64,000 nt of DNA from an uncultured Gammaproteobacteria bacterium (GCA_964585225.1 CAZPCZ010000001.1:6018-70017); one strand, 5' to 3'. Counted from the stretch's first letter, positions 5,111 through 33,195 are shown. Notes: a model not told the origin generated them from the letters alone. A program made the numbers and translations.

Positions 5111-5120
5111 GTACGTGCCT

Positions 5121-5173: not shown

Positions 5174-5311
5174 GCAATGAGTTCACCGAAACGATTATGA
5201 GTGGCTTGATCGCACCCAGCGTACCGCACCCCCACACCGCGGGCAATGCAAAGCCCCACTCCGATGCTTGTCCGCCTTGGGCGGGGACATCGGAGCGGGG
5301 CGTGAGCAGCT

Positions 5312-10651: not shown

Positions 10652-11905
10652 TCACGCAGGAACGACGAGCGTCGGCGCCCTAACGAGCAAGCGTTCGAGG
10701 TGATCAATACACAATCGTTTCCCGTAGTGTGCTGCCGCGTACGCACGGCCCGCAGCACCGAGCACTGGGAGCCGCGCGCGTTCTGCGTAGAGCTTCCGTA
10801 CGAGCTGTTCTGCGGTATCGAGATCATCGGACCGGCACGCATACCCGCATCGTGTATCCCGCATGATGCTGAACCCGTCATTCCCGTCGTTTAAGAGCGC
10901 GAGCACCGGAATGCCAGCCGCAAGGAATCCGGTGCACTTCCCCGGCACCATAGAAGTCGTGTACGTCGCCTTGAGACAGAGGAGGCCTACATCGAATTCC
11001 TTCACGAGCGCGGGATACTCGGAGGGATCCACAAAATCCTCAAACTGGACGTTCGCGATGCGCTCATCGCGCGCGCGTTGCTGCATGCGCGCTTTCTCCG
11101 TGCCATCACCCACCAAGAGGAACCGAACGTCGCGGAAATCGGCGACGCGCTTTGCGAGATCGAGCACCACGTCGAGTGACTGTGCCGGTCCGAGAATGCC
11201 AGGGAACCCGATGACGAACTTCCCATCGAGACCATGGCGACGTCGGAAACGACCTTCCGGACGTACCGCATCCCATGCATCGAGGTCAATCCAGTTCGAG
11301 ACAACGGTGACTTTCTCGGTGGCCACACCCTTCCGCTCGATGAGGAATCGCCGACTCCCCTCCGTGTGCGTCGTGATCGCATCGGCGCTCGCGTACGCGT
11401 GACGTTCCATGCGCTCGAAGTATGCGATGATCGCACGGTTCCGCATGATGCCGAGATCAATCGCGTTCTGCGGGAAGATGTCCTGGACGTTCAGGAGGTG
11501 GCGGCAGCCATGCTCGCGTGCGATCGCTTGCCCAACTAGTGCGAGCGGCAGCGGAGAGACGTACGAAACGACTGCAGCGACGCGCTCACGGACGTGCTCG
11601 CGGTACGCACGGAGGTACCGTCGTGGGAGGTCGAGGTGCGCGATGCCGCGGAGGAGATACGCAATCCCATGCGCCGGAAGCGTACGAATGCGGATGACGC
11701 GCACGCCGTTCTCCACCATCACCGGCTCGAAGTGCCGCGCACGCGCATCTGCGGAGAGATGATACCGCGGCCACGGCGCGAGCACTGTGACTCGGTGCCC
11801 GCGCGCAACGAGCTCCTCCGCGAGCTCGCGGAGCATGATCGATATCGAACGGACCTCGGGAGGGTAGCAGATGGCGACGAGCACTATGTGCATACCTACG
11901 GCCAT
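10652..11905 (-). CDS. Glycosyltransferase family 4 (GT-B)
   Basis: 417 aa with GT4 N- and C-domain pattern (...FVGRL-like VGDG...E.FG...EAMA-like region). Alternative ATG at 11893. Confidence 0.8.
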   Translation of the reverse strand: MAVGMHIVLVAICYPPEVRSISIMLRELAEELVARGHRVTVLAPWPRYHLSADARARHFEPVMVENGVRVIRIRTLPAHGIAYLLRGIAHLDLPRRYLRAYREHVRERVAAVVSYVSPLPLALVGQAIAREHGCRHLLNVQDIFPQNAIDLGIMRNRAIIAYFERMERHAYASADAITTHTEGSRRFLIERKGVATEKVTVVSNWIDLDAWDAVRPEGRFRRRHGLDGKFVIGFPGILGPAQSLDVVLDLAKRVADFRDVRFLLVGDGTEKARMQQRARDERIANVQFEDFVDPSEYPALVKEFDVGLLCLKATYTTSMVPGKCTGFLAAGIPVLALLNDGNDGFSIMRDTRCGYACRSDDLDTAEQLVRKLYAERARLPVLGAAGRAYAAAHYGKRLCIDHLERLLVRAPTLVVPA

Positions 11906-11917
11906 TGTTCCATTGCT

Positions 11918-13048
11918 TCATTGCTTCATTGCTACCGACTCGCGGACTCGCTCGAATACCTCGAGGAGGCCGCGGGCGGTGCGATCCCAGGTGAATTCCT
12001 GAACGCGCTTGGTGCCGGTGGCGACGAGACGTTCTCGGAGTGGGGCATCGTTGAGAAGTTGTAGGATTGCGCGCGCGATGTCTTCCGGATCTCGTGGTGC
12101 GAAGTATACTGCGGCGTCGCCACAGAGCTCGGGCATCGGCGGGGTGTTCGATGCCACAATGGGAACCCCGCACGCCATCGCTTCGAGGAGTGTGTGCGGG
12201 CAGGATTCGAGCATGGAGGGGAACACGAACGCGGTCGCACTCCGCATGAGCGCGTGAAGCTCGTCCTGCCGGACGAGGCCGAGGAAACGGATGCGATCAC
12301 TCACGCCCAAGGCGGCGATGCGCGCACGGACGCGATCGACATACCGCTGATCGTGCACGCCGCCCGCAAACCACAGTGGTGGCGTGTCCGGCTGTTTCGC
12401 GACGAGCCGTGCGAACCCCTCCACAAGCGCGAGCTGATTCGCGTACGCGACGAACTTGCTCGCCGTCAGAAAGTACGGATGCGCTGACACCTGACACCTG
12501 ACACCTGACACCTGACCAATCGGATTACCATTGTAGACCACTGAACTCTTTCCAGCAGCGTCCGGAAATCGCTCGACAACCTCATCGCGGACCGCGTGGG
12601 ACACCGCGACGACCGCGTCGGCGCGCGTGATGGATCGTTTCGTGAGCTCCCACTTCATCCGAGATTGTACGTCGAGCATCCACGCGTTCCCAAACTCACG
12701 ATAGCGGAACGGCTCCATGTTCCGGATCGCGATCACCTGCGGACACGGCGCCCGGAATACCGCGATGTTCTTCGCGGTGTAGAGGAGATCCATGCGATGC
12801 CGACGGAGCTCCGTGGGAAGTACGAGCTGCTCGTAGCGGAACCGTTCGAGCGCGCTCGTCTGCGGTCGCACCACTTCATGGAATACGATGTTCGGTCGTT
12901 GAAGGCCGGCTATGAGCGGATGTTGTTCCGGAACGAAGCAGTGGTACTCGTTCGGTGTGTCGACATCCGCAAGTGCCGGAAGAAGATTCCGGAAGTACGT
13001 CGCACCACCATACCCGAGACCAGAGAGGAGCGTCAGGGCAATTCTCAT
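11918..13048 (-). CDS. Glycosyltransferase family 4 containing a heptanucleotide tandem repeat
   Basis: Start MRIALTLLSGLGYGG has an ATGA overlap with the AsnB stop. C-terminal GT4 motifs (FVFPS..ES.P..LLEAMACGVPIV). Carries the CTGACAC x4.7 repeat, which encodes QVSGVRCQVS. Confidence 0.8.
   Translation of the reverse strand: MRIALTLLSGLGYGGATYFRNLLPALADVDTPNEYHCFVPEQHPLIAGLQRPNIVFHEVVRPQTSALERFRYEQLVLPTELRRHRMDLLYTAKNIAVFRAPCPQVIAIRNMEPFRYREFGNAWMLDVQSRMKWELTKRSITRADAVVAVSHAVRDEVVERFPDAAGKSSVVYNGNPIGQVSGVRCQVSAHPYFLTASKFVAYANQLALVEGFARLVAKQPDTPPLWFAGGVHDQRYVDRVRARIAALGVSDRIRFLGLVRQDELHALMRSATAFVFPSMLESCPHTLLEAMACGVPIVASNTPPMPELCGDAAVYFAPRDPEDIARAILQLLNDAPLRERLVATGTKRVQEFTWDRTARGLLEVFERVRESVAMKQ
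12484..12516. repeat. Heptanucleotide simple sequence repeat (CTGACAC)x4 plus partial, inside a GT4 coding sequence
   Basis: ctgacacctgacacctgacacctgacacctgac. The unit is not a multiple of 3, so gain or loss of a unit shifts the frame. Confidence 0.9.
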
Positions 13049-14931: not shown

Positions 14932-14979
14932 AGGCGCTACGCGCGTTGAAGAACGGAGAGCAGAAGAACGGAGAAATTT

Positions 14980-18915: not shown

Positions 18916-20172
18916 TTATGCGACAGCTGCTTGCGCGGGGGTCGCCACCGTGTGCGGCCGCACTACTGGAACCGGCAACCCGTCCTCACCGTACGAACGT
19001 CCGACCCAGTAGTGGGAGAGCTCTGGCGCGTGCATGCGGAAGCCGGGACCCGATCCATCATCGGTCTCATCAAGCCGCCGGAGAAGATCCGCGACGATGC
19101 GCTCGGAGGCCTTGCCGTCGCCCATGGGATTCGGCCACGTCTTCCCGTAGAGCGCCTCGAATTTTGCGAGGACGAACTCGGGCGGATACTTCGCCGGCTC
19201 CGCAGGATCGAACTTCACGCTCGAGCCAACGTCGTACGTCTGCGGGCGTTCGGTCGCCTTCCGCATCTGGAGGGACGGCACCTGGAGCACGCACGTCTCC
19301 TCGACGACCGTACCAGAATCCGTGATGACGCCGCGCGAGTTCACCATGAGCGCAACGAACTCGAAGTATCCGATGGGGTCCACCATGATGACGTTCTTCG
19401 GGAGCGTAAGCCCGTACTCCTGGAGCACCTTCTGCGTGCGGTAGCTCGCGGGGAAGTACACCGTCCGATCCGTGTGTCCGATGAGCTTCAGAATCGCCTC
19501 GAAGGATGAGCGGATGTGCACGTTCTCGCGCCGATGGCACGTCATGAGGTAGTACTCCCCCCTCGTGACACCACGAGGCGCGAAGAACGCCGGCGTTGCG
19601 AGCGCATCGAACTGCGCTTTCCGATCGAAGTAGTACGTCTGGAGAATCTCCACGATTGGATTGCCGTACGTGACGACGATGCTCTTTGGATTGAGCCCGC
19701 CGACCATCCCCTGGAGCTTGTACTCCGGGAAGTACGTGTAGATGACATCGGACATCTGGTCAATGAGGCGTCGGTACTTATCCTCCGGCATGCGCCAATC
19801 GTACGAATGCCAGCACCCCTCGAAATGCACGATCGGAATGTTGAGCTGGCACGCGGCAATGCACCCGACGATCGTATTCGTATCTCCGAGGAACATGACC
19901 GCATCGGGCTTGAGATCCTGGAGCACGGGCGAGAGCTTCTGGATCATCGCGCCCGCGATCTCTGCATCGGTCGTACCGGACACGCCGAGCTCGAGGTCGG
20001 GCTTCGCCACGCCGAGCTCGCGGAAGAAAATGTCCTTCAAGTTGTCCGAGTAGTGCTGTCCGGACCAGATGAACGTAATGCGATGCTTCCGCTGGGCGCG
20101 GAGCGCGTTCAAGACGAGCGATGCGCGGATGACATCTGGACGGATACCGAGCACGATTGCGAGGTGAGCCAT
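18916..20172 (-). CDS. UDP-N-acetylglucosamine 2-epimerase (WecB/NeuC family)
   Basis: Start MAHLAIVLGIRPDVIR. The ORF-track start at 20199 carries a 9-aa extension. Typical epimerase_2 pattern (GDTNT..., HFEGC-like HVEAG region, MVDPIGY). About 50 aa extra C-terminal tail. Confidence 0.85.
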   Translation of the reverse strand: MAHLAIVLGIRPDVIRASLVLNALRAQRKHRITFIWSGQHYSDNLKDIFFRELGVAKPDLELGVSGTTDAEIAGAMIQKLSPVLQDLKPDAVMFLGDTNTIVGCIAACQLNIPIVHFEGCWHSYDWRMPEDKYRRLIDQMSDVIYTYFPEYKLQGMVGGLNPKSIVVTYGNPIVEILQTYYFDRKAQFDALATPAFFAPRGVTRGEYYLMTCHRRENVHIRSSFEAILKLIGHTDRTVYFPASYRTQKVLQEYGLTLPKNVIMVDPIGYFEFVALMVNSRGVITDSGTVVEETCVLQVPSLQMRKATERPQTYDVGSSVKFDPAEPAKYPPEFVLAKFEALYGKTWPNPMGDGKASERIVADLLRRLDETDDGSGPGFRMHAPELSHYWVGRSYGEDGLPVPVVRPHTVATPAQAAVA

Positions 20173-20215
20173 AGCAAAGCTGCGAGCTGAGAGCTGCAAG
20201 CTACAAGCGAGATTG
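20173..20215 (-). promoter_or_regulatory. Conserved 5' leader motif copy 1, immediately upstream of the WecB-like ATG
   Basis: Minus strand reads CAATCTCGCTTGTAGCTTGCAGCTCTCAGCTCGCAGCTTTGCT-ATG. 33 of 38 positions are identical to the motif at 30423-30462. Confidence 0.5.
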
Positions 20216-20266
20216 GTCGTATCCTCATTGCACCGCGTACATGCGGCACTGTCAACGCGCGCCTAA

Positions 20267-21199
20267 TCATACCGTTGCGGCTGCGCACGCGCGGAGCGCT
20301 TCTGCGATCGGACGGTCGGTGCCGAATGCCGTCACGAGATCCGATCGCATCGCGAGTACGCGTTGTATGGGAGCCACATGCACGATCGGCCGTACGGTCA
20401 TCCGTTTCCCAAGTGCCTCCGCGATTGCCGTGACGAGCTCTGCCTTCGTGCATGGTACATTCGGCGCGAAGTGGAGCACGTGCGATGTTGCGCGCAGACC
20501 ATCGAATCGGTCCTCCGCGATAATCCAACGACAGAACTCCGCGAATTGGAGCGTCGTCACGCCATGCCAAATGTGATTCGTATACCCGTCGATCGTCGTA
20601 CCTTCAGGTTGTGCGGCGACCCACTCCCAAAGCCCCTCTCGTTTGTACGGACTCGGACCAATGATGGAGCACCGAACATTGAGGGCATTCGGCGCTCGAC
20701 CTTCGCCGAGAAGCTTGGTGCGGCCGTACGTGTCCGTCGCATCCGGCGGGTCGGCCTCGGTATATGCACGTATGCCCACCCCCTCTCGCTCCCCCTCCCG
20801 AGGGGAGGGGGAGAAACTCGAACCGCAAAATACTCCGTCGGTCGACATGTGGATCACGTTGACCCCGCGCTGTGCCGCTGATGCCGCGAGCACGTGTGGA
20901 AATTCCGCGTTCACGCGGATCGCTCGCGCGACTGATGCGGGGTCACTCTCATCAACATGCCGCGCGGTGACGCCGATGCAATTGATGACGAAATCAGTGC
21001 GCGCGAGGAGCTGCTCCAATGTCGTTCGGTGTGAGATTTCTCGCTCGTCGCTCGAAATGACACCAGGGGGAAAAGCGACCGCATCGAATACGTCCCGCCC
21101 CACACCCCGAATCGTAAACCGCGCATCCGAGGCCAAAACATGCTCGACCATGTGGCCGAGCATGCCGCGGTTACCGAGGATGAGGACACGATATGCCAT
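20267..21199 (-). CDS. dTDP-4-dehydrorhamnose reductase (RmlD)-like NDP-sugar reductase with in-frame palindromic-element insertion
   Basis: RVLILGNRGMLG Rossmann motif. STDGVF...YTE.DPP....YGRTKL pattern. About 17 extra aa (SSFSPSPREGEREGVGI) between FCG and RAYTE are encoded by element copy (d). Confidence 0.8.
   Translation of the reverse strand: MAYRVLILGNRGMLGHMVEHVLASDARFTIRGVGRDVFDAVAFPPGVISSDEREISHRTTLEQLLARTDFVINCIGVTARHVDESDPASVARAIRVNAEFPHVLAASAAQRGVNVIHMSTDGVFCGSSFSPSPREGEREGVGIRAYTEADPPDATDTYGRTKLLGEGRAPNALNVRCSIIGPSPYKREGLWEWVAAQPEGTTIDGYTNHIWHGVTTLQFAEFCRWIIAEDRFDGLRATSHVLHFAPNVPCTKAELVTAIAEALGKRMTVRPIVHVAPIQRVLAMRSDLVTAFGTDRPIAEALRACAAATV
20776..20815. repeat. GC-rich palindromic element copy (d), inserted in-frame inside the RmlD-like CDS
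   Basis: ccaccccctctcgctccccctcccgaggggagggggagaaa. Near-identical to the reverse complement of copy (b). Confidence 0.75.
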
Positions 21200-21200
21200 G

Positions 21201-22514
21201 TCACGCGGTCAAAATTTCCGCACCAACGACCTTGACGTCCGGAAGCGGCACGATGAATTTTCCGCCCGCGTGGAGGTAGTCCGCACGTTTGCTCACGACT
21301 TCCTTCATGAAACTCCAGGCGAAGAGAAGCGCGTAGTCCGGACGCGGACCTTCCTCGACGCGCGACCATGGATGGATCGGCACGTGCGTACCGGGTGTTG
21401 CGAATCCGTGCTTCGCGGGTGCGTCGTCTACGACGTAATCGAGGTACTTCCCGTCAATGCCGCAGTAGTTCATGATCGTCGTGCCGCGTCCCGATGCGCC
21501 GTACCCGATGATCGTCTTGCCCTGCGCCTTGAGCGTATCGAGGAGCGCCATGAGATCCGTCCGCGTCTTTGCGATGCGATCGCCGTACGCTTGGAAGGTC
21601 TCCGCGCGGTCGTATCCGCGCTCGCGCTCCTGCTGCTCCATCGCGCGCACGCTCTCGGAAATCGGCTCTGAACGCTGGCCGACGCGCCGCGCGTAGAATC
21701 GTACCGCGCCGGAACGAACACCTGGCGTGAAGTACACATCGAACACTTCCATCCCGTAGCGCGCGAGGAAGTTCCGAATCGCGGAAAGTGAATAGTATGA
21801 ACAGTGCTCGTGGTACACCATGTCGTACTGCATCTCCTCCATCAGCGTCCCGACGTAGTACACCTCGAACACGAGTACGCCGTCTGGCTTCAGGATCGTA
21901 CCCACACCGTCCATGACGCTCCGCATGTCATCAATGTGCGCGAATGAGTAGCTCGTGGTGATTGCGTCGAACTGGCCGAATTGCGTCTTCACGAGCCGCG
22001 CCGCCTCACGCCCGAAAAAACCATCGATGATAGTGAAACCGTCTTGCGCCACCGATGCAACGACGTTCGATGCGGGATCCATACCGATCGCGCGTACACC
22101 GAGCTGGGCGAAGGGCTTGAGCATGACGCCATCGTTGCAGCCGATCTCGAATACCGATGGATCGGTGCGGCCAGTCAGGAACCGATCGTGGACGTCCTTC
22201 GCGAAATCCGCGCAGTGCGTAACGAGCGTCTGGATCTTTGATGAAAAGTAGAAGTAGTTCTTGAAGAGCACCTCGCCCGCGACCGCGTTCGTCACCTGAA
22301 CGAGTGTGCAATCGCTGCAAAACTTCAGATCGAGCGGGTAGTACTGCTCTCCTACGAACTGCTCGGGTTTCAGGAAGCCGCCTGCGAGCGGAACGTCGCC
22401 GAAGTCGAGCACACGCTCAAGCCGCTGGCCGTCGCAAAAACGACAGGTGGCATGCGGCATGAATTCACCGATCCGACGTTCGGTGGTGCGGACAGGGGTT
22501 GCGGTCATCGTCAT
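21201..22514 (-). CDS. NDP-hexose C-methyltransferase (TylC3/NovU-like: zinc-binding + MTase + C-methyltransferase C-terminal domain)
   Basis: CRFCDG...CSDC zinc-binding region, class I MTase core (EIGCNDG) and a C-terminal domain. Start MTMTATP has an ATGA overlap with the GT2 stop. Confidence 0.75.
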   Translation of the reverse strand: MTMTATPVRTTERRIGEFMPHATCRFCDGQRLERVLDFGDVPLAGGFLKPEQFVGEQYYPLDLKFCSDCTLVQVTNAVAGEVLFKNYFYFSSKIQTLVTHCADFAKDVHDRFLTGRTDPSVFEIGCNDGVMLKPFAQLGVRAIGMDPASNVVASVAQDGFTIIDGFFGREAARLVKTQFGQFDAITTSYSFAHIDDMRSVMDGVGTILKPDGVLVFEVYYVGTLMEEMQYDMVYHEHCSYYSLSAIRNFLARYGMEVFDVYFTPGVRSGAVRFYARRVGQRSEPISESVRAMEQQERERGYDRAETFQAYGDRIAKTRTDLMALLDTLKAQGKTIIGYGASGRGTTIMNYCGIDGKYLDYVVDDAPAKHGFATPGTHVPIHPWSRVEEGPRPDYALLFAWSFMKEVVSKRADYLHAGGKFIVPLPDVKVVGAEILTA

Positions 22515-23275
22515 ACGGCGGTCGTGTGTTCCGGTACGCGGTACGGGATGCGAGACGCGTTCCGCGCGTGAGTAAAATACTGTCGCCAAGTTCGAAATCC
22601 GTACGAGAGGTGCGAACGACCATCCTCCGGTCCACGACTCGTGAGCGTGTATGGGATCTCGCAAAACGTCGCGCCGAGTCGCTTCGCTTCGCAGAGCTCC
22701 TCGAGAATCATCGCGAATCCATGCTCGGTGAGCCGCATGTTCCGGAGGAGGTCCGTCCGCACTGCACGAAACCCATTCGTGTGATCACGGATCGGGAGTT
22801 GGTAGAACGTGCGGGCAACACCGTTCCCGACACGGGAAAGCAGCTGGTGGCGCCAAGGCACGCCGACGACCGCGCTCCCCGCAGCATACCGAGATGCCTT
22901 GATGTACGCCCATCCTTCATTCATCTTCTCGTAGAATAGCGTCAGGTATCGCGGATGATTCGTCAAATCACTGTCCATGAAGAGCGCATAGTCGAACCCC
23001 CCATCGATCGCGAATCGCGCACCTGAGCGGAGTGCGGCGCCATACCCCCGATTCACCTCATGGTGCACGACGCGAAATCGTTCATCGTGGAGCTCCTCTG
23101 CGAGCCGTACAAGGATCTTCGGCGTCGCATCGTGGGAGCCATCGTTCACGACACAGAGCGTCGTCTCGTACGGGAGTGCACCAAGATGCGCGTGAACCGT
23201 CCGCACGCTCCGCTCCGCGACTGCCTCCTCGTCATGCATGGGGATCACGATGCACACGCGCATACGGTCGCTCAC
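22511..23275 (-). CDS. GT2 polyprenol-phosphate glycosyltransferase (DPM1/ArnC/GtrB-like)
   Basis: VCIVIPMHDE, VVNDGSHD and MDSDL (DxD) motifs. About 250 aa, soluble. ATGA overlap with the upstream FkbM gene. Confidence 0.85.
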   Translation of the reverse strand: MSDRMRVCIVIPMHDEEAVAERSVRTVHAHLGALPYETTLCVVNDGSHDATPKILVRLAEELHDERFRVVHHEVNRGYGAALRSGARFAIDGGFDYALFMDSDLTNHPRYLTLFYEKMNEGWAYIKASRYAAGSAVVGVPWRHQLLSRVGNGVARTFYQLPIRDHTNGFRAVRTDLLRNMRLTEHGFAMILEELCEAKRLGATFCEIPYTLTSRGPEDGRSHLSYGFRTWRQYFTHARNASRIPYRVPEHTTAV

Positions 23276-24135
23276 TGAGGAAACGCGAGGACATTACGAC
23301 TCCCTCCTACGGGAATCGTCGCTGCGAGATCGGCGACATTGCGCGGGAGTGGCACGCCGTGCAGATCGGTGAACGTATAGCCGTGCGCGTGAAAGATTCC
23401 GACAAGCTCACTGAGTGATGCCCCATGCTCTTCGAGGCCGTACGGGAGGAGCTCCATAATGAAGCGTGGCCGATGCTGCTCGAGCAGATGCTTGGCCCCG
23501 GAGAGTACGGCACACTCGACGCCGTCAATATCCATTTTCACGAAATGCACCTTCGGGATGGCGAGTCGTTCGAGCAGCGCGTCGATGGTCACGCGCTCCG
23601 CCCCCTCTATTGATGCTCGTTGCCCTCGATGGATGGGATGGAGGTCCTCCGCTCTCCGGAGCGGCCAACTCGAGAACAGTCCTCCGGAAGGTGTCGCCGA
23701 GCGTTTGTCGCCTGACCCGATCAAGTACGCCTGCACCGCCTGTACGCGATCGCAAATACTTGGATTCGCAGCGACATTCTTCGTGAGCTTTCGAAATGCG
23801 GAAGTGGTTGGCTCAATGGCGATCACGCGTCCCTCCGCACCGACGCAGCGCGCCATGGGCAGCGTGTGCGCACCGACGTGCGCTCCGATATCGAGTACGA
23901 CGTCACCCGGTCGCAGGACGCGCGTGTACGCTCGCATTGTTTCGCGTTCGAACGCGCCGAGGAGATAGATAGTGAACTCGATGCCCTCTCCGAGATCGAG
24001 CTCCCACGTGAATCCGTTTCGTCGAACACGGACGACGTCGCCGAACCCCGCCACGCGACGCGCGAACGAGATCGGCACGTACGCCGATCGCGCGATCGCA
24101 AGTTTCGTTTTCGTGTTCATGCGCACACGCGTCAT
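23272..24135 (-). CDS. FkbM-family methyltransferase
   Basis: VLDIGAHVGAHT SAM motif followed by a FkbM-type C-terminus. Start MTRVRMN has an ATGA overlap with the GT-C stop. Confidence 0.75.
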   Translation of the reverse strand: MTRVRMNTKTKLAIARSAYVPISFARRVAGFGDVVRVRRNGFTWELDLGEGIEFTIYLLGAFERETMRAYTRVLRPGDVVLDIGAHVGAHTLPMARCVGAEGRVIAIEPTTSAFRKLTKNVAANPSICDRVQAVQAYLIGSGDKRSATPSGGLFSSWPLRRAEDLHPIHRGQRASIEGAERVTIDALLERLAIPKVHFVKMDIDGVECAVLSGAKHLLEQHRPRFIMELLPYGLEEHGASLSELVGIFHAHGYTFTDLHGVPLPRNVADLAATIPVGGSRNVLAFPQ

Positions 24136-25556
24136 AGCACTCGTCGCCGCAATCGGAACGTCCAAAGGAAGGAGCCCCCATACGCCGCGAGCACGTAGAG
24201 CATCGGCATGAGCGGTGGTCGGTATCTTGGGGTAGCAACGGGAGTGGATACGAACACGACGTAGAGTACCACTGCGAGTAATACGGACAACATCCAGCGA
24301 TCGCTCCGATTTCGGAGCATACGCATGACGCCGATGCACGCGAAGCCCAGTAGCGCGAGCATGAATACCTTCAGTAGCCAGTAGATCGCAACGTAAAGGT
24401 ACCGACCTTCGGACCAGAGCGCGGGGAGCAGCGTACGATGGCCTGTAATGGCCCCGGAGGTGAACCCGCGAATAATATCCTCCACGCGCCCCTTGGGAAA
24501 AAAGTAGTACGGAGGAAGCGTCCCAAACAGCAGCGACGGCACATCGAGCAATTTCACGACGAGATACGTGAATGGATGATCGAGTACAATCCTGCGCCCC
24601 ACCGCATATTGGTAATCGCTCTTCTCCGCTACAGATGCACGCTCGGCGGCATTCGGTGGAAGGACGGCGGCCATTTCCTGTTCGATCTCCAGATTCGAGA
24701 CCCCTCGAATGCGGGCAAGGGTATGCGCCGCATGGTACTGCAGCATCACCTCACCGGATTGCGAACTGAATGAAGAAGTGCCCACCACATACCAATTCCT
24801 CACTTTCCAACCGCCAAAAAAGGCAAACACGATCGCGAAAAAGATACCAACGTGCAGCAGCTTCGTACGGCGCGAGAGTGCACCATTCCGCAAGAGATAC
24901 AGCGCGAGTATGAAAAGGAGGGGCACCCAAAGCAAGTACACGGAAACCTTCGTCCATGTGCCCACCCCAAGCCAGAGCGCGGAAAGCAGCACGCCAGAAA
25001 TGAACTGTTGCGCCTTGAGGTATCGCATGAGATAGAAAATACCCATCGTACTGAAGAAGGCAGCCACGAAATCCGGGGTGTCATAATTCATGGCAACGGA
25101 AATCATGTAGACGTCCAGTGCCGCCAAGAGCGCTGCGGCGTATCCGAGGCCCGGACCCCACAGGCGACCGATGCGATAGGTAAAGTACACCACTCCAATA
25201 GCCATGCACCATGTCATAAACCGCACGACATCGAGCGCGAGCGTGGTATCCCCAAACACGAGGAAGCTCGAGAAGAGCATGAAGGGATACACCGGCGGGA
25301 AACGCGAGGTCGAGAGCAACGCGCCTGTCTCGCTCACTTCGCCAACAGAAAAAAGTCTGTCGTAATAGAGGTGGCGAGCAGCTTCGACGTAAGAAAGGGA
25401 ACCCCCAGCGTGAGAGAGCAACTCTTGGCCATAGTTCTTCAACCAAAACACGAACAGAAGGCCCCAGACGAGCACGACGCACGCCCAGAACAAGGTGCTG
25501 GGTCTCCACGTCGCTCGGAGAAGTGGTGCGATTCGCCGTGCGTCCATACTGGACAT
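24132..25556 (-). CDS. GT-C membrane glycosyltransferase (ArnT/PMT, GT39/83-like), paralog of 41237..42631
   Basis: 474 aa with about 11 TM segments. Motifs shared with the paralog: LLWVPL, FFGGWKVRN, FGTxPPY, LLPxLWSEGR, YVLxxYG. Lower GC than flanks. Confidence 0.75.
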   Translation of the reverse strand: MSSMDARRIAPLLRATWRPSTLFWACVVLVWGLLFVFWLKNYGQELLSHAGGSLSYVEAARHLYYDRLFSVGEVSETGALLSTSRFPPVYPFMLFSSFLVFGDTTLALDVVRFMTWCMAIGVVYFTYRIGRLWGPGLGYAAALLAALDVYMISVAMNYDTPDFVAAFFSTMGIFYLMRYLKAQQFISGVLLSALWLGVGTWTKVSVYLLWVPLLFILALYLLRNGALSRRTKLLHVGIFFAIVFAFFGGWKVRNWYVVGTSSFSSQSGEVMLQYHAAHTLARIRGVSNLEIEQEMAAVLPPNAAERASVAEKSDYQYAVGRRIVLDHPFTYLVVKLLDVPSLLFGTLPPYYFFPKGRVEDIIRGFTSGAITGHRTLLPALWSEGRYLYVAIYWLLKVFMLALLGFACIGVMRMLRNRSDRWMLSVLLAVVLYVVFVSTPVATPRYRPPLMPMLYVLAAYGGSFLWTFRLRRRVL

Positions 25557-25559
25557 TCC

Positions 25560-26987
25560 TCACGAACGGAGATCCCACCACATGCGCATGACCGCACGGG
25601 TGAACCGCCACCCTTCTCGAAACCGAAGCATCTTCGACTCACCGAATGTCCGCGCGAGGTAGTGCACGGGTACCTCGACCATCTTCAAGCTCAGCGCCGC
25701 CGCGCCGAAGAAGAGCGCGAGATCACCGTAGCGATCGAGCTGCGCCAGCTTCGATGGGATCGACATGCGCTCGAAGTCGCGCTGAAAGAGCACTTTTGTT
25801 CCGCAGAATGCATCGGTTGCGTGCTGTCCCGTCACGCGAGCAACCGCCGAACCAAAACGACGGTTCATAAAGACATTAAGGGGCTGCATCGCGCCGCGCT
25901 CCATGGGGTAGATAAGCCGCGAGCCGTACAAGAATTCGCCGCGCCGTGTACTGATGGTGTCGTAGAATGTACGCAGCGCTGCGGGATCGACGCTCGCATC
26001 TGCATCGAGCACCATGAGGATGTCTCCGTTCGCTTGCGCGAAGCCCGTCCGGACTGCGTCCCATTTTCCTCGTCCACCCTGCACCACGCAGCGCACGTTC
26101 CGTTTCCCCGCGTACTCCGCGACGACGCGCTGAATCTCTTCCCGTGTTCCATCTGTGGAGTGCCCCTCCACGAAGAGGATCTCGGTCGCGCTCCCCAGCG
26201 CCGGCACGCGTTGCACGATCTGCTCGATGTTCCCGCGCTCGTTCCGTGCGGGGATGATGACGCTCACTCGAAATCGCGCTCCCGCCGAATGGCGGGGTCG
26301 CAGCCGACACATGACGTACTCGATGACGCAGAACCGATTGATGATCGGAAGCGGAGCGAGCACGCGATTGGCGAAGGCGCTGAACCACGGAATGTACTTC
26401 GGGAAGAGCGTCCGTCTCCCGTGCTGGATGATCTCGAAATCCGCGAGCTGGAGCAGTCGCACCACGTCGTGGTGTCCAATCCAGTTCAGGAATGGGTGTG
26501 GCTGCTTGAGCCGGAGCGATGCTGCGAGCGTGAGGATCGGGGACCAGAGGCGATTGTACTTCGTCACGATGACGCGCGTGCGCTCATCACAGAGCGCGTG
26601 GATGTTCTTGAACGACGCGTGAATGTCGTCGAGGTACCCCACGAGGTCGGAGAGGATGACGTAGTCGAACGCCTTCGTAATTGGCGAGACCACGTCAATA
26701 TCGCCCTCGTAGAACTCAAGATGGGGGTATCGCTCCCGTGCGAGCCGCACGACCGTTGGCGAGCAATCAATGCCCGCGCCAACCTTCGGCTCCACTGTGT
26801 GGAGGAGTTCTGCGGTTCCACACCCAACCTCGCAAACGGTGCTCCCCTTCGGGATGAACGTCCGGAGGAGCCGCGTGAGCCCATGGTAGTAGTACGCATT
26901 CCGGCGATTCCATCGTGGAAGCTCTGGCGCGATCGCATCGAAATGCGCACGAAGCTGTGCTTTCCGCGACTGCGGTGCGTCGCTCAT
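25560..26987 (-). CDS. Bifunctional SAM-dependent methyltransferase / GT2 glycosyltransferase fusion
   Basis: N-terminal class I MTase (VCEVGCGTAEL). C-terminal GT2 (VSVIIPARNE ... VLDAD). Confidence 0.8.
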   Translation of the reverse strand: MSDAPQSRKAQLRAHFDAIAPELPRWNRRNAYYYHGLTRLLRTFIPKGSTVCEVGCGTAELLHTVEPKVGAGIDCSPTVVRLARERYPHLEFYEGDIDVVSPITKAFDYVILSDLVGYLDDIHASFKNIHALCDERTRVIVTKYNRLWSPILTLAASLRLKQPHPFLNWIGHHDVVRLLQLADFEIIQHGRRTLFPKYIPWFSAFANRVLAPLPIINRFCVIEYVMCRLRPRHSAGARFRVSVIIPARNERGNIEQIVQRVPALGSATEILFVEGHSTDGTREEIQRVVAEYAGKRNVRCVVQGGRGKWDAVRTGFAQANGDILMVLDADASVDPAALRTFYDTISTRRGEFLYGSRLIYPMERGAMQPLNVFMNRRFGSAVARVTGQHATDAFCGTKVLFQRDFERMSIPSKLAQLDRYGDLALFFGAAALSLKMVEVPVHYLARTFGESKMLRFREGWRFTRAVMRMWWDLRS

Positions 26988-27934
26988 ACGTTCGCCACGC
27001 GCGCGTTGGCTTCATACCACGCGATTGTTGCCCGGAGGCCATCCGCAAGCAACGTGCGGGCGACAAAGCCGCACTCGCGCTGTGCACGAGTCGCATCGAG
27101 GCATCGGCGTGGGAATCCTTCCGGTTTCGACGCATCCCATTGGATGGTGCCCGTGAACCCCATGATGGAACAGATGGTTCGGACGAGTGTTTCGATGGTC
27201 GTTTCCATTCCGGTCCCCAGATTCATCGGTGCGGGATCGTCGTAACGTTCCGTCGCGAGCACAATGCCCTCAGCCGCATCCTCCACGTACAGGAATTCAC
27301 GAGTCGCTTGCCCACTCCCCCATACAGACACCGCATCGTCTCCCTGCTGCTTGGCATCCGTGATTTTCCGGATGAGCGCGGGGACGACGTGCGATCGCTC
27401 GGGATCGAAGTGATCACCAGGACCGTAGAGGTTGACCGGCAGGAGATGGATGGCGTGGAACCCGTACTCGCGCCGGTACGCTTCCGCTTGGACGAGGAGC
27501 ATCTTCTTCGCGAGACCGTACGGTGCAGTCGCTGGAGCAGGATACCCATCCCAAAGGGATTCCTCCCGCAGTGGAATGGGAGTATGCTCCGGGTACTCGC
27601 ACGTCGTACCCACGACGATGAACCGCTCGACACTCGCATGACGCGCCGCCTCCATGAGCTGGAGCCCCATGATGGCGTTGTCGTAGAACAGTTGCCCGGG
27701 ATGCGCGACGTTGTACCCAATCCCTCCGACGTTCGCCGCGAGGTGGAGCACGACATCGTGGTCACGCACGACGTCCACACACGTCTCCCATCGACGGAGG
27801 TCATGCACCGCCGAACGTGGAACGGTGATCTGTGCGGGTGGGACGCCGATCGCGAGGAGGCGGCGGTGCACGGCACCACCGAGAAACCCGGTACCACCGG
27901 TGAGGAGGATGCGCTTACGCTTGAGATCAAGCAT
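26984..27934 (-). CDS. fcl: GDP-L-fucose synthase (GDP-4-keto-6-deoxy-D-mannose 3,5-epimerase/4-reductase)
   Basis: ILLTGGTGFLGGAV, HLAANVGGI, ...YGPGDHFDPERSHVVPALI. Confidence 0.85.
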   Translation of the reverse strand: MLDLKRKRILLTGGTGFLGGAVHRRLLAIGVPPAQITVPRSAVHDLRRWETCVDVVRDHDVVLHLAANVGGIGYNVAHPGQLFYDNAIMGLQLMEAARHASVERFIVVGTTCEYPEHTPIPLREESLWDGYPAPATAPYGLAKKMLLVQAEAYRREYGFHAIHLLPVNLYGPGDHFDPERSHVVPALIRKITDAKQQGDDAVSVWGSGQATREFLYVEDAAEGIVLATERYDDPAPMNLGTGMETTIETLVRTICSIMGFTGTIQWDASKPEGFPRRCLDATRAQRECGFVARTLLADGLRATIAWYEANARVANV

Positions 27935-28028
27935 ATCTATCACCAAACGTATCGAATCCCAGTGTCCCATGCGGGATATGAACGGTCAATGCGCCCACGA
28001 AACCAAATACCCCGCTTGCAACCCGAAC

Positions 28029-28063
28029 AAAAAAACGCGCCCCGATGGACATCGCGACGCGCC
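28029..28063 (-). terminator. Putative intrinsic terminator (imperfect GC hairpin followed by T7) between the cupin pseudogene and fcl
   Basis: Minus strand reads GGCGCGTCGCGATGTCCATCGGGGCGCG followed by TTTTTTT. A 7-nt homopolymer T run is unusual in this GC-rich sequence. Confidence 0.45.
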
Positions 28064-28095
28064 TCTACGACTCCACTCTTCGCTTGGAACGGTGC

Positions 28096-28516
28096 TCACG
28101 ACACCGCTCGCGCGTCGCCGTGTCCTGGCGCGGGGATGGTGTCCCGCGCATCGTACGGCCGATCGGCGAGGGTGATGAGGATCGTCCCCGGCTCCGGGCC
28201 GAAGAACGTGTGCGGGACTCCCGCGGGACATTCGATGAGGCATAGCGCGCGGAGTTGCTCGTGTACCTGCTCCTCCGCGCCCACCCCCCACCACGAACCT
28301 CGCGAACCCACCGTGTGCGAGCATGAACCACTCCGTCGTGGTCGCATGGGCATGACGTCCGAGCGCCATGTCCGCCACGACACGATCGGTACATGTGATC
28401 TCGTTCACGCGCGCAACCGTAAAGGGCGCGGGGAGCTCGACCTCAACGATCGTCCGTCGCGCATCAATGTGGACGACGGGAAGCGGCATCACGGTACAAC
28501 GACGGTCCTGTTCCAT
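28096..28516 (-). pseudogene. FdtA/WxcM-like cupin (sugar 3,4-ketoisomerase-like), frameshifted at a G6 homopolymer
   Basis: N-terminal part (MEQDRRCTVMPLPVVHIDARRTIVEVELPAPFTVARVNEI...GRHAHATTTEWFMLAHG) is in the frame of ORF 27986..28576. C-terminal part (EEQVHEQLRALCLIECPAGVPHTF...ILITLADRPYDARDTIP) is in the frame of ORF 28096..28383. The junction is at the cccccc run near 28275-28280. Confidence 0.55.
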
Positions 28517-28591
28517 GGTGTGCTCCTCTCCTGTTTCCCCCGTGAGCGGATGTTCCGAAACGAGCGACTCGAACAACGCGATCCGAATGCT

Positions 28592-29617
28592 TCATTGATA
28601 CACCGCAGCCGCTGAACGCGACCCCTCCGCAGGACGAAGGGCAAACGCCTTCCCCTCCGCATCCACCATCATACGCACGAGCGCACGGAACGTCGTCTGC
28701 GGTTGCCATCCGAGCTTCGCTCTCGCTTTCGATGCATCACCGACGAGATACGGGATTTCCTTCGGGCGCAGCTCGCGTGGGTCAAAGGCGATGTAGTGTT
28801 CTGGATCGAGCCCCGCGTACGTGAACGCCTCATGGATGAACTCACGAACGGAGTGCGCCTCGCCCGTTGCGATGACGTAGTCATCCGGCTCGTCCTGCTG
28901 GAGCATGAGCCACATCGCCTCGACGTACTCTCTCGCGTACCCCCAGTCGCGTTTCGCGTCGAGGTTCCCAAGGTAGAGCTTCTGCTGCACCCCCGCCTTG
29001 ATGCGATAGATCGCCTGCGTAATCTTCCGGGTGACATACGTCTCACCCCGGCGCGGGGACTCGTGATTGAAGAGGATGCCACCGCACGCGTACATGCCGT
29101 ACGCCTCACGGTAATTCACCGTCACATGGTGCGCGAACGCCTTTGCGGCACCATAGGGACTTGCGGGATGGAATGGCGTCCGTTCGGTGATGGGGAGATC
29201 GGTCGAATCGCCGAACATCTCACTGCTCGACGCTTGGTAGAATCGACAATTCAACCCGCTCTGCCTAATCGCCTCGAGCAACCGAATGGCGCCGAGCCCG
29301 GTGACGTCTCCCGTGAACTCTGGAACGTCAAAACTCACACGGACGTGCGCCTGCGCGCCGATATTGTACACCTCTTCGGGACGAATCGTTTGGATGAGTC
29401 GTTGGAGTGCATTAGAATCCGCGAGATCTGCGTAGTGCAAGAAAAATCGCGTCGTCGGCGAGTGCGGATCTGCGACAAGATGCGCGATGCGCTCCGCATT
29501 GTTCGTACTCGAACGACGAATGGTGCCATGCACCTCATACCCCTTGGCGAGCAACAGCTCCGCGAGGTAGCTTCCGTCTTGGCCAGTGACACCAGTGATA
29601 AGCGCCTTCTTTCTCAT
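28592..29617 (-). CDS. gmd: GDP-mannose 4,6-dehydratase
   Basis: [29 protein letters not shown]. Extended-SDR YxxxK. GGTGGA RBS before MRKK. Confidence 0.9.
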
Positions 29618-29699
29618 ATCCACCATCGAATCAAGGGCACCGGCGCACCGCAATACCCCCCACACCCGCAGGCGGTCCGTGCCCGGGTGTGCTCGTCAT

Positions 29700-30422
29700 T
29701 CAAAACCACGGGATGCCGACCCGGTGTCCGAGCCCGCGAACGAGCACCCATGCGTACGCTGGGCCGTCGCGCAGTAGTCGGAAATCGCCCGCACTCGATG
29801 GTTGCGGCATGGTAGGAACGTACGCGACGCGCCCGCCTCCGAGGAGCCCCTTCAGAGTGATCTCTGGACAAATTGCGTACCCATTCTGGGTTAACCCGAG
29901 CGCTTGGACGTACACGCGGTCAAACATCTTATACCCGTACGTGGAATCGGTCACGGTGTGTCCGAGGAGGAACCGCACGAGCGCGCGGTAGAGTTTCTGG
30001 TATGCACGGAACTGCCATGAGAGCGCGCGCGCATCTTCCGACCGCGTGTACCGTGTTGCCTGCGCAACGTGTGCGCCGGCGTGGAGCGCGGCGAGCATCT
30101 TCGGGAGCGCGCCAAGGTCATCCTCCGCGTAGGGGGACACGAGTGCGATGTACCGGCTCGTCGAATACGCAATGCCGAACCGTGCGAGCGCACCGAACCG
30201 TCGCGCAGCACCGAGGCGCTCGAGGAGCGTGAACTGCACCCATGGGTATCGCTCGCGCATAAAGCGGACGATCGTGTCGCGATGCGGATCCTCATCATTC
30301 GCGACGACGATCACGTCCGTATCGCTCGGGTTCGCCATGAGATACGCCGCGAGCTGATCGAGGAACGACGGGAGAACCTCCGTGGACGTCGTGCACGGGA
30401 TCACGATGGACACTTCATTCAT
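29700..30422 (-). CDS. GT2 glycosyltransferase
   Basis: MNEVSIVIPC...VVANDED. ATG chosen because the TTG ORF start at 30455 lies inside the conserved leader motif. Confidence 0.75.
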   Translation of the reverse strand: MNEVSIVIPCTTSTEVLPSFLDQLAAYLMANPSDTDVIVVANDEDPHRDTIVRFMRERYPWVQFTLLERLGAARRFGALARFGIAYSTSRYIALVSPYAEDDLGALPKMLAALHAGAHVAQATRYTRSEDARALSWQFRAYQKLYRALVRFLLGHTVTDSTYGYKMFDRVYVQALGLTQNGYAICPEITLKGLLGGGRVAYVPTMPQPSSAGDFRLLRDGPAYAWVLVRGLGHRVGIPWF

Positions 30423-30462
30423 AGAAAGCCGCAAGCCGACAGCTGCAAGCTTCAAGCAGCGG
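30423..30462 (-). promoter_or_regulatory. Conserved 5' leader motif copy 2, immediately upstream of the GT2 ATG
   Basis: Minus strand reads CGCTGCTTGAAGCTTGCAGCTGTCGGCTTGCGGCTTTCT-ATG. Confidence 0.5.
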
Positions 30463-30470
30463 CGGGATCT

Positions 30471-31460
30471 TCATACGCGCGCTCCGGTCTGCACGCGGCC
30501 GAATGGCATCTCGTATTCCTGGAGGAGTGGTTTCAAGTACAGGTAATTCGAGAATCGAGTGACAAATGAATTCTTGATCCGTCCCTCCTCGAGGAGCGCC
30601 TTGAGCTCGATGATGCCGTCCTCGATGCGGCGCTCCGGACGAAACCCGAGATCGCGCTGCGCCTTCGCGCTCGTTGTGCGGTAGTTGCGGTTGTCCTGCG
30701 TCATCACCGACGATCGCTCGACGACCGCATGGGGGAAGTGGTGATGGATGCGATCCGCGAGATCGTGGATGGTGCAGTTCTCCGCATGCGCGTTGTATGT
30801 ACCCGCGGATGGTGTCGTAAGCTCCTGCGCGATGAGCTGCGCGATGTCCTTCACGTGGACGAACGGCCGGAACTGCTGCCCACCGAACACGCTCATCTTC
30901 CTATGGAGCGCGGCGCGCATCGTGAGCGTGTTCACGACGAGGTCGAACCGAATCCGCGCGTGTGTATCGCCGACGCCGTAGAGCGTCCCCAGCCGGAATT
31001 GGAGCACGTTCGGACGACGCGCGAGGAGCTCCTCGCCCCAAATCTTCGTCTTCGCGTAGAGCGAGAGCGGATGGAGCGGCGACCCCTCGTGGAGCTCATC
31101 ATCACGCTCCGTCGCGCCGTACACGGAACATGACGACATCACCAAGAGCTTGCCGTGGGAGTGCTCCGCGGCGTACCGCAGCGCATGGACGTTCACATCC
31201 ATCGTGAGCCGTTCGTTGAGCGCGCACGCGGGATCGCCGACGAGCGCCGCGAGCCAGACCACTGCATCCGCCCAGTCAAGGTGCGGCTGGAGTTGCGCGT
31301 AGTCGCGAACATCTCCGTACACGAACGGCACATCCTTGCGGTATGACTCCTCGTAGAGCAGCACGTCGTAGACGCGCACCTCGTGATCGCTCGTCCGGAG
31401 TACATCCGTCAGCGCCCCGCCGAGGTATCCCGCGCCGCCGGTGATGAGGACGCGTGCCAT
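30471..31460 (-). CDS. NAD-dependent sugar epimerase/dehydratase (SDR), paralog of 4070..5110
   Basis: MARVLITGGAGYLGG. Shared blocks with the 4070 gene. Confidence 0.85.
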   Translation of the reverse strand: MARVLITGGAGYLGGALTDVLRTSDHEVRVYDVLLYEESYRKDVPFVYGDVRDYAQLQPHLDWADAVVWLAALVGDPACALNERLTMDVNVHALRYAAEHSHGKLLVMSSCSVYGATERDDELHEGSPLHPLSLYAKTKIWGEELLARRPNVLQFRLGTLYGVGDTHARIRFDLVVNTLTMRAALHRKMSVFGGQQFRPFVHVKDIAQLIAQELTTPSAGTYNAHAENCTIHDLADRIHHHFPHAVVERSSVMTQDNRNYRTTSAKAQRDLGFRPERRIEDGIIELKALLEEGRIKNSFVTRFSNYLYLKPLLQEYEMPFGRVQTGARV

Positions 31461-31461
31461 A

Positions 31462-33195
31462 CTACGTCGACGCACGGACAACCTCTCCATCATTCGCAAC
31501 GCGCGCCGCAGCGTACGTCAGCGCGAGCGCACTCCAAAACCACGGGTGGACCCAAAGGTACACGGTCTGGTGGTAGAGGACGAGCGCCAGGAAGAGCGGG
31601 AAGAGCACGACGATGGGAAGGACCACGCGACTACGCCGCGTCCTCCAAAGCGCAGCGAGTCCACGAACCATCACCACCACGAGGAGTCCGGCAATCGCAA
31701 TGAGGCCGAGCGCGCCGGTCTCGGCCCACGCGTTCATAAAGATATTGAAGATGCCCTTATCCATGTCTCCAGCCGGAACCTCTTCGTCGACGAAAATACG
31801 AGCTTTCAAGTGACGAGCCGCTGCAGCGCTCTGCGCCTCGCGCCGAACCTGTTCAGCAAATGTATCGAATATCCGCTTATCTTTCAGCTGCCCCGCACCG
31901 ATACCGGTCAACGGATACGTTCGGCCCACCACCCACCCGACGGCGATGCCGCGCCTCCGTATACTGAACGAACTCTCGACGCGTGATGGCACCCAATTCA
32001 GCCGCGCGAGGTTCTGATTGGTGTAGAACGGATCCACTGGTGGAACCGTCGGGGGAGGGGGAGGTGGAACCGTCGGGGGAGGGGGAGGGGGCGATGCAGA
32101 AGATATCGTCACCGGAACGCGCTCCGAAGTCGCGCGGGCGGTCGACGGTGATGCCGCTTCGGGAACAAACGCGCGCAGGAATGATGCGAGGGCCACCACA
32201 CGATCCTCCTGCGCAACGAGGCCCGCAGCGATCGCGTCTCCGGTCACTGGAGATGGAGGACGATCGGCAACTGTGAGGGCGTATGTGGTGCGCCACGACA
32301 GCAACGTACGCGCGGTGTTCTGAATCTCAATGAGATTGTACCGATACCAGGAGACGACGAAGAACATGCCGAGGAGGAGCACCGCCCTCCATCGTTGCGT
32401 ACGAATCGTCGTGAGCATGAGAAGGCAGAGGAATGTGAGCAGCACGATCTGTCCAACTTTCACGAATGCAAAGAACACGAGCTGGGTCCAGAGCGCGAGG
32501 ATGACGAACAGCACAATACTCACCCACCGATGACGTTGCTCCCGCACGAAGAGGTACACGAGTCCAGCGCCAAAAAAAATGAGGGCGTAAGCAAGGACGT
32601 GCACGGTGGACCTCCCGATGAACTCGGTTATCTCGAGTAACCAGGACTGTCCGGGAGACGCATAACTATGGGAAAGGAACTTCGAGTACGTCACTGTAAT
32701 GATCGCGAGGCACGAGATCCCCATTGCGCTCAATACCGAACGGATGAGCCGATCCGACCGAAGGACGTTCACGAGGAGGAAGACGAGGAAGCTGTACCGC
32801 GCAACGGCGATGCCGACTTGGAGCAGCAACGCACGATCGCTCGCGATGGGGAATGCGATGAACTGCGCGACGGCGTTCAGGAGGAGCAGCGCGTAGAGGA
32901 TGGGGGCGTGGATGATGCGAAGACGGCGCGTCGCGAGCGCATGCATCGTGAAGAGGATCACGAGGAGCAACGCGAGCTCGGTATATTTCACCGACGTTCC
33001 GAATACCGGCAACCGTCCCGGGAGCGGGATGCCGAACGCATTGAACGGGAGCAGTACGAAGTATACAAGGGTGCTCACGTGCAGCCAGCGATACTCGCGA
33101 TCATTGAACACCTCCTGAATATCATGGAACACCATCGCCCCCGCGCGATGGACGCTCTCCCATACGATTCCAATGATTCGTTGCGGGGCAGTCAT
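31462..33195 (-). CDS. O-antigen ligase / Wzy_C-family membrane protein with a proline-rich periplasmic insert
   Basis: 577 aa with at least 10 TM segments. GIGAGQ...IFNIFMNAWAETGALGLIA resembles the Wzy_C GxGxG...HN..LE..E.G signature. Internal PPPPPPTVPPPPPPTVPP from a 24-nt tandem duplication. Confidence 0.7.
   Translation of the reverse strand: MTAPQRIIGIVWESVHRAGAMVFHDIQEVFNDREYRWLHVSTLVYFVLLPFNAFGIPLPGRLPVFGTSVKYTELALLLVILFTMHALATRRLRIIHAPILYALLLLNAVAQFIAFPIASDRALLLQVGIAVARYSFLVFLLVNVLRSDRLIRSVLSAMGISCLAIITVTYSKFLSHSYASPGQSWLLEITEFIGRSTVHVLAYALIFFGAGLVYLFVREQRHRWVSIVLFVILALWTQLVFFAFVKVGQIVLLTFLCLLMLTTIRTQRWRAVLLLGMFFVVSWYRYNLIEIQNTARTLLSWRTTYALTVADRPPSPVTGDAIAAGLVAQEDRVVALASFLRAFVPEAASPSTARATSERVPVTISSASPPPPPPTVPPPPPPTVPPVDPFYTNQNLARLNWVPSRVESSFSIRRRGIAVGWVVGRTYPLTGIGAGQLKDKRIFDTFAEQVRREAQSAAAARHLKARIFVDEEVPAGDMDKGIFNIFMNAWAETGALGLIAIAGLLVVVMVRGLAALWRTRRSRVVLPIVVLFPLFLALVLYHQTVYLWVHPWFWSALALTYAAARVANDGEVVRAST
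32041..32088. repeat. Perfect 24-nt tandem duplication (gtggaaccgtcgggggagggggag x2) inside the ligase-like CDS
   Basis: Encodes PPPPPPTV x2. The plus-strand GGGGGAGGGGGAG resembles one arm of the palindromic element family. Confidence 0.85.

Follow-up and report, generated by a model that had tools for sequence, protein, structure and literature searches.

Two nearly identical sequences that end exactly at the start codons of two unrelated genes raise the question of what the shared element is and what it does there. The case comes from a 64,000-nucleotide (nt) stretch of DNA deposited under the name of an uncultured Gammaproteobacteria bacterium (GCA_964585225.1, CAZPCZ010000001.1:6018-70017; the whole stretch is called the window below), in which an earlier note described a conserved leader motif of about 38 nt immediately before a WecB-like UDP-GlcNAc 2-epimerase gene (site 1) and a GT2 glycosyltransferase gene (site 2). 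Our analysis showed that this "38-nt motif" is a short degenerate tandem array of heptamers, which forms the last 35-36 nt before each start codon.

On the minus strand, the sequence of site 1 is GCTTGTAGCTTGCAGCTCTCAGCTCGCAGCTTTGCT followed by the ATG at 20172-20170, and that of site 2 is GCTTGAAGCTTGCAGCTGTCGGCTTGCGGCTTTCT followed by the ATG at 30422-30420. The site 1 array (20173-20208, minus strand) consists of GCTTGTA GCTTGCA GCTCTCA GCTCGCA GCTTTGCT, while the site 2 array (30423-30457, minus strand) consists of GCTTGAA GCTTGCA GCTGTCG GCTTGCG GCTTTCT, and both share an architecture of four GCTTGNA heptamers plus a terminal GCTTYNCT that abuts the ATG. Tandem Repeats Finder reported a period of 7 at 20177-20208, with 4.6 copies and 80% matches. 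Five GCT triplets in this phase were found at both sites and nowhere else in the 64 kb, against 0.42 expected, and a degenerate 27-mer core occurred twice in the window, a count reached in 0 of 100 shuffles. Both arrays are non-coding, as they lie in sense orientation between the stop codon of the upstream gene and the next start codon; they therefore combine the tandem 7-nt units and the non-coding location that define heptamer simple sequence repeats (SSRs).

An alignment of site 1 with site 2 contains five substitutions and one 1-nt gap; without gaps, 28 of 33 positions are identical. This is consistent with the 33/38 identity given in the earlier note, and its observation of near-identical sequences ending exactly at the ATGs of two unrelated genes was borne out. 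The description of an element that fills nearly the whole short spacer held at site 2, where the array takes up 35 of 48 nt, but not at site 1, where the spacer is 94 nt long. The resemblance of the two sites comes from a common repeat unit in a common register and not from the preservation of a unique 38-mer.

The view of a specific conserved 38-nt motif did not survive comparison with other phyla. When a 24-nt array pattern was scanned against one genome per species, at least 119 loci were obtained, with about 4 expected by chance, and these included Pseudomonas, Halomonas, Alcanivorax, Xanthomonas, Chitinophagaceae and Bacteroidales as well as Clostridia, Chloroflexia, Armatimonadota, Actinomycetota, Saccharibacteria and others. 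All matches listed were (GCTTGNA)n arrays in intergenic DNA, from 3 units to more than 25 in length; they often abutted a start or stop codon and often formed inverted pairs around hairpins. Among the 119 matches listed, all selected by the first 24 nt of the array pattern, 41 unrelated arrays agreed with site 1 at 28-29 of 33 positions, that is, as well as site 2 does. Nothing relevant to the GCTTGNA unit or its rotations was found in the searchable literature.

Several arrangements among these arrays were recorded on the side (L numbers denote the loci or assemblies compared). In pseudomonads (L028, L044, L047, L059, L117 and others), (GCTTGNA)n often faces an inverted (TNCAAGC)n across a GC-rich, terminator-like hairpin, and in L077, L082 and L096 (Xanthomonas, Pseudomonas juntendi and Ectopseudomonas) the arrays change abruptly to other heptamers (AGCTTCT, AGCCTGA); no description of such facing or switching arrays was found in the searchable literature. 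The JGI metagenome contigs L124/L130 and L126/L129 (61-65% G+C) carry a common 4-unit arrangement, AGCTTGC AGCTATC RGCTTGC AGCTTTTGAAT, at two different loci, with a second array nearby on the opposite strand in L124/L130 and L126. Here too, a single arrangement of units recurs at different loci of similar metagenomes.

We then compared the surroundings of the two sites. Site 1 lies between an RmlD-like reductase/epimerase gene (20267-21199, minus strand; stop codon 20269-20267) and the WecB-like gene (18916-20172, minus strand; 418 aa; Pfam Epimerase_2, E = 5e-67), and site 2 lies between an NAD-dependent epimerase gene (30471-31499, minus strand; stop codon 30473-30471) and the GT2 gene (29700-30422, minus strand; 240 aa; Pfam Glycos_transf_2), with homologs supporting both downstream genes. 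The ATG starts are backed by an independent gene call (418 aa) and by the N-termini of orthologs (MAHLAIVLGIRPD). The two downstream proteins are unrelated to each other, and so are the two upstream proteins, although both of the latter are epimerases of the short-chain dehydrogenase/reductase type; the DNA likeness stops at the borders of the motif. A segmental duplication, with or without the upstream genes, was therefore ruled out as the source of the similarity. The window as a whole is one very large glycan-biosynthesis region of about 63% G+C, with nearly all genes on the minus strand. The closest homologues of the wecB-like and GT2 genes came from metagenome-assembled genomes (MAGs) labelled Candidatus Uhrbacteria or just "bacterium", which suggests that the organism is probably a high-GC, Uhrbacteria-like member of Patescibacteria.

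In related Uhrbacteria-like MAGs, an array was present in the same place in three of seven further wecB leaders, namely L137 (GCA_030647635.1), L136 and L134 (GCA_016203525.1), each with five phased GCT and each ending 5 nt before the ATG. In L134, the array stands directly before wecB despite a different upstream gene. The other leaders (L121, L135, L123 and L122) lack the array and have other short-repeat-like sequences instead. The order of the unit variants differed among wecB orthologs, and what was kept is the period-7 GCT phase, the unit number and the pyrimidine-rich end CTTYNNT-ATG. At site 1, a possible target duplication of 14 nt (ACGACCAATCTCGC, resembling the L121 start ATGGCCAATCTCGC) was considered and dropped, because the ancestral residue 3 is His and not Asn and because the segment aligns with homologous sequence in the 5' untranslated region (5'UTR) of L136 and L137; no other duplication was detectable at this site.

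At the GT2 gene, the array was found in one of six further junctions of related MAGs (L138, GCA_016205925.1), in a diverged version, while L139 and L128, which belong to the same organism as the window, have an identical one. In L121, L163/L164 and L137, the epimerase stop overlaps the GT2 start without any spacer (...GCGCGTATGAAYGARGT..., gcgcgtATGAAYGARGT), whereas the junction of the window (with L139 and L128) and of L138 reads GCGCG-TATGAA-(GATCCCGCCGCT + array)-TATGAA-TGA(A/G)GTG. Compared with the overlap in the relatives, the window and L138 thus carry a 46-nt insertion (30424-30469, minus strand) made of the prefix GATCCCGCCGCT and the array. The left copy of TATGAA (30470-30475, minus strand) contains the TGA stop of the upstream epimerase gene and the right copy (30418-30423, minus strand) contains the GT2 ATG, and this 6-nt direct duplication leaves both stop and start intact. 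The comparison of junctions indicates that the ancestral state was an ATGA stop/start overlap, that the array arrived as a 46-nt insertion with duplication of TATGAA, and that the insertion split the overlap, so that the GT2 gene is no longer coupled to the epimerase gene before it. L123 and L162 have different short spacers at this junction, and that of L123 is another ATGA...ATGA spacer.

The presence of the site 2 array goes with the long form of the locus. In the window and in L138, a segment of about 6.4 kb (23272-29700) carries FkbM methyltransferase, PMT_2, MT-GT2, epimerase and GDP-mannose dehydratase genes; L121 and L137 have no such segment between the two GT2 genes. This glycan locus is therefore mosaic among close relatives.

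The site 2 spacer was well conserved. Between the window and L138, 42 of its 48 nt were identical (87.5%) without any indel, against 43% identity at fourfold-degenerate sites of the GT2 gene and 52% at those of the epimerase gene (binomial P = 2e-7 at p = 0.52), with a mean DNA identity of about 77%. The spacer ranked among the best-conserved intervals of the 1.76-kb alignment of these two loci, in which the third positions of the neighbouring 40 codons were 72% identical upstream and 58% identical downstream. Six independent arrays each showed five phased GCT (one of them GTT in L138) and ended 4-5 nt before the ATG. No change of unit number was seen among these six arrays or in four further assemblies of the same organism (L001, L127, L128 and L139); in L136, the array may have undergone a one-unit register shift. 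Such comparisons indicate that several related genomes have inherited the arrays at these positions without any change in the number of units.

Neither array contains a canonical Shine-Dalgarno (SD) sequence, as had been stated, but this is not special to the two genes. SD-like 4-mers (GGAG, GAGG, AGGA) were found at -20 to -4 of 3 of the 25 minus-strand starts in the window, against a background of 16%; the lack of an SD thus characterizes the organism, in which translation initiation appears to be largely SD-independent. ATGA overlaps between genes are frequent in the window.

A bipartite promoter-like element, TTGACA-N17-TGCAAT (20227-20255, minus strand), lies upstream of the site 1 array. 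The form TTGAC(A/C)-N17-TGCA(A/C)T was found before wecB in six loci (the window, L121, L123, L135, L136 and L137), with conserved hexamers, an invariant 17-nt spacing and a variable spacer sequence. This pattern of conservation is that of a promoter signature, with a putative promoter function, and the element may be a promoter type of this lineage. A consensus scan found no sigma-70-type -35/-10 pair with 16-18 nt spacing in 19900-20500 or 30250-30750; it was silent on the TGCAAT element because its -10 hexamer has no A at position 2. With the promoter-like element upstream, the site 1 array would fall into the 5'UTR of wecB.

Taking these results together, we somewhat favour the reading that the arrays are retained as a spacer or leader, weakly structured and SD-independent, before the start codons of wecB and GT2, where they would set the access of ribosomes to the AUG. 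At site 2, ribosomes would reach the AUG by re-initiation or by scanning across the 48 nt after the upstream stop, and at site 1 the 5'UTR of roughly 50 nt would let them enter directly. A repeat-binding protein might take part, as suggested for other heptamer leader repeats. The same role has been proposed for the TAACTGA repeats of Beggiatoaceae and for the heptamer repeats near start codons of Nostoc (bioRxiv 10.1101/2022.06.06.494920). To speak of a leader, as the earlier note did, is fair in so far as the array recurs at orthologous gene starts in related genomes, and of the roles offered there that of a translational enhancer is close to the reading preferred here. The promoter and riboregulator roles found no support: the arrays are neither a promoter nor a folded riboregulator, nor do they work as a copy-number phase switch.

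A number of observations weigh against a leader role. Close relatives have no array at wecB (L121, L135 and L123) or at GT2 (L121, L137 and L163), and the array is therefore dispensable or replaceable by other short-repeat leaders. Classical S1-dependent enhancers are rich in A/U, which this leader is not. The conservation of the spacer comes from one pair, the window and L138, and unusually high third-position conservation was also seen in the ~10 codons that end the upstream epimerase gene, so that a local recombination patch is possible. Orientation was neutral among the 119 matches listed, with 23 sense and 27 antisense arrays between co-directional genes, 22 between convergent and 15 between divergent genes, which fits a repeat acting at the DNA level better than an RNA element. 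In viral contigs, permuted control heptamers gave 6, 2 and 6 loci, compared with 8 for GCTTGCA x3. With control heptamers about equally frequent and orientation neutral, the idea that the cross-phylum GCTTGNA family is something special was rejected and its behaviour was treated as that of an ordinary heptamer SSR; together with the arrays in other phyla, these results make the motif one instance of the known over-representation of heptamers in intergenic DNA.

The main rival explanation builds on the same observations. It holds that the arrays are neutral or selfish SSRs, which arose by slippage or templated insertion in tolerant intergenic DNA and persist by their own dynamics without a role in expression. 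We regard it as possible, but clearly less likely than a leader function. Heptamer SSRs are known to be over-represented in the intergenic DNA of bacteria (PMC4692102), and the neutral orientation and the comparable frequency of other heptamers fit this reading; the array-less orthologs are evidently functional, and unrelated short repeats occur at other gene junctions of the window. However, a neutral repeat does not readily account for a site 2 spacer that is far better conserved than synonymous sites and free of indels, for the same unit number in six arrays without length variation among assemblies, or for the constant end point relative to the ATG.

Two broader proposals, which we consider doubtful, go further than a leader role at these two genes. 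The first is that (GCUUGNA)4-GCUUYNCU-AUG is a lineage-specific, SD-independent initiation module of Uhrbacteria-like Patescibacteria, read by the ribosome or by a repeat-binding protein; such a module could be transplanted by short insertions with target duplication and so rewire translational coupling in glycan operons. The second is that the GCTTGNA arrays of many phyla, rather than arising by independent slippage, might share a function or a generating mechanism.

It is improbable that the arrays are small, non-autonomous mobile cassettes, similar to miniature inverted-repeat transposable elements, that insert at gene starts with target-site duplication. Site 2 does look like a discrete insertion, since its 46 nt are bounded by a 6-nt direct duplication and three lineages have the intact ATGA junction, and one locus holds two copies with similar 3' ends (GCTTTCT/GCTTTGCT). 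Yet an inverted-repeat scan found no terminal inverted repeats at the arrays, only overlapping AGCT quasi-palindromes; the 5' prefix GATCCCGCCGCT gave chance-level matches and is not repeated elsewhere, and site 1 has no detectable duplication. Two copies were found in 64 kb, arrays occurred at the same two gene starts only in about 100 kb of related loci, and a specific metagenome scan recovered this particular arrangement, within this lineage, at the same two sites and nowhere else. The doubled TATGAA itself could be mimicked by selection: a viable insertion into an ATGA overlap must retain both stop and start, so selection alone favours a duplicated junction, as in the ATGA...ATGA spacer of L123.

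A structured cis-regulatory RNA, a small RNA target or an RNase processing site in the leader is very unlikely. The position in the mRNA just 5' of the AUG would suit such an element, and pairing is conceivable between the repeated AGCU (RGCU) tetramers, in which first-position A/G changes would retain G-U pairing. Against this, neither leader matched a curated family in an Rfam search, no common fold was predicted for the six leaders, most of which are no more stable than shuffled sequences (z from +1.0 to -2.4), and the order of units is not conserved among orthologs. The riboregulator suggested in the earlier note was given up on the same evidence.

Still less probable is a copy-number phase-variation switch (contingency locus) for the surface glycan genes, although such switches are classically found as tandem repeats in glycan loci and a perfect heptamer array lies inside a nearby GT4 gene. 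The units at the two sites are imperfect, with 80% matches, and their number is constant in the six arrays and the four further assemblies of the same organism, which argues against a hypermutable switch. In known contingency SSRs, such as the 7-bp ATCTTTC repeats upstream of the H. influenzae hmw genes, the repeats are perfect, long and hypervariable in number (cf. PMC12721329, PMC2651432). The arrays studied here are likewise heptamer tandem repeats upstream or in the 5'UTR of surface-structure genes, but they differ in being imperfect and invariant in number.

The GT4 gene (11918-13048, minus strand) is an observation in its own right. Its perfect, in-frame array (12484-12516, minus strand; (GTGTCAG) x 4.7, 33 nt) encodes part of a variable inter-domain linker, GQVSGVRCQVS, for which the L122/L123 orthologs have an unrelated linker of equal length. 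Since gain or loss of one unit would alter the reading frame, the encoded glycosyltransferase may be phase-variable. According to the alignment, its true start is M37 (13048), in an ATGA overlap with an AsnB-like gene. At its other end, an 8-mer array (11902-11933, minus strand; CAATGAAG x ~4) spans the GT4 stop codon and the ATG (11905) of the next GT4 gene and forms another gene junction built of a short tandem repeat.

The last alternative, an internal promoter or a cluster of protein-binding or methylation sites on the DNA (five AGCT within 35 bp), can be practically dismissed: the AGCT/GCWGC sites are dense and periodic and heptad repeats bind regulators in some systems, such as the TTTTGAT heptads of the ctxAB promoter, but neither motif contains a promoter-like site, the site 1 array lies downstream of the conserved promoter-like element, the site 2 array lies inside an operon, 0-48 nt past a stop codon, and no regulator or methyltransferase was linked to the array. 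A scan for the terminator consensus found none inside either motif.

JUMPstart/ops is an element of about 39 nt in the leaders of polysaccharide operons, where it mediates RfaH-dependent antitermination; it occurs once at the 5' end of the operon and is not a tandem repeat. The arrays have a similar size and a leader position in a polysaccharide cluster, but they share no sequence similarity with it. The ops core GGCGGTAG was absent at and near both sites, and its only matches in the window, at 7627 and 10214, are at chance level.

Some other short repeats of the window were also noted. The 11-mer AGATTGGTCGT pointed out in the earlier note does occur at both 14982 and 20210; the claim that each copy lies just downstream of a stop codon needs correction, as the copy at 14982 overlaps a stop codon and that at 20210 lies 47 nt past one, within a 5'UTR segment that is homologous among orthologs. 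About 0.03 matches are expected for a given 11-mer and no context supports a relationship, so the sharing was regarded as chance. In the leader of the AsnB-like gene (ATG 14931), a 12-nt direct repeat, TCTCCGTTCTTC, occurs twice, 15 nt apart, at 14948-14974 (minus strand) within a 48-nt spacer, and the 11-mer (ACGACCAATCT, 14992-14982) stands just upstream of these repeats and overlaps the preceding stop codon. G/C-rich palindromes (CTCCCCCTCCC...GGGAGGGGAG) were seen at ~4100-4165 and 5115-5180 (minus strand), upstream of the genes starting at 4095 and 5110, and a perfect 24-nt x 2.1 repeat (GGTGGAACCGTCGGGGGAGGGGGA) at 32039-32088, inside the open reading frame 31462-33195; these may be another small repeat family of the genome.

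The arrays are a new example of already known bacterial heptamer repeats, both intergenic heptamer SSRs and heptamer leader repeats. In Beggiatoaceae, forward-oriented TAACTGA repeats stand only a few nucleotides before start codons, where they overlap the expected ribosome-binding site; they form sets of 2-6 units in SD-poor intergenic regions before genes without a common function, with 169 sets in one genome, and a translational role has been proposed for them (MacGregor 2015, PMC4679880). The arrays of sites 1 and 2 are similar in being forward-oriented, in ending 4-5 nt before the ATG and in having no SD, and they differ in their degenerate GCTTGNA unit, in their Patescibacteria-like host and in their number of two sets in 64 kb. 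Over-represented heptanucleotide SSRs have been described among the long SSRs of class LSSR 5-11 (Mrazek et al. 2007, as cited in PMC4692102), and other examples are GGGAATC in Xanthomonas, GGGGAYT in Nostoc and the short tandemly repeated repetitive (STRR) sequences of cyanobacteria. Such SSRs often abut starts or stops, sometimes form inverted pairs and vary between close relatives, and an origin by slippage has been proposed. Like them, the arrays have period 7 and are confined to intergenic DNA; unlike them, they are not G-rich or quadruplex-forming, and they have about five units without length variation among relatives.

Heptamer repeats are the most over-represented long SSRs in bacterial intergenic DNA. 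To these, the present case contributes an example from a candidate-phyla-radiation lineage, a dated insertion that turned an ATGA-coupled gene pair into a pair with a 48-nt repeat spacer between its members, and one comparison in which conservation of a repeat spacer far exceeds that of synonymous sites. If the arrays are neutral, they are just another SSR. If they do set initiation in this SD-poor organism, they would provide a compact, testable model for SD-independent initiation and for the evolution of coupling within operons.

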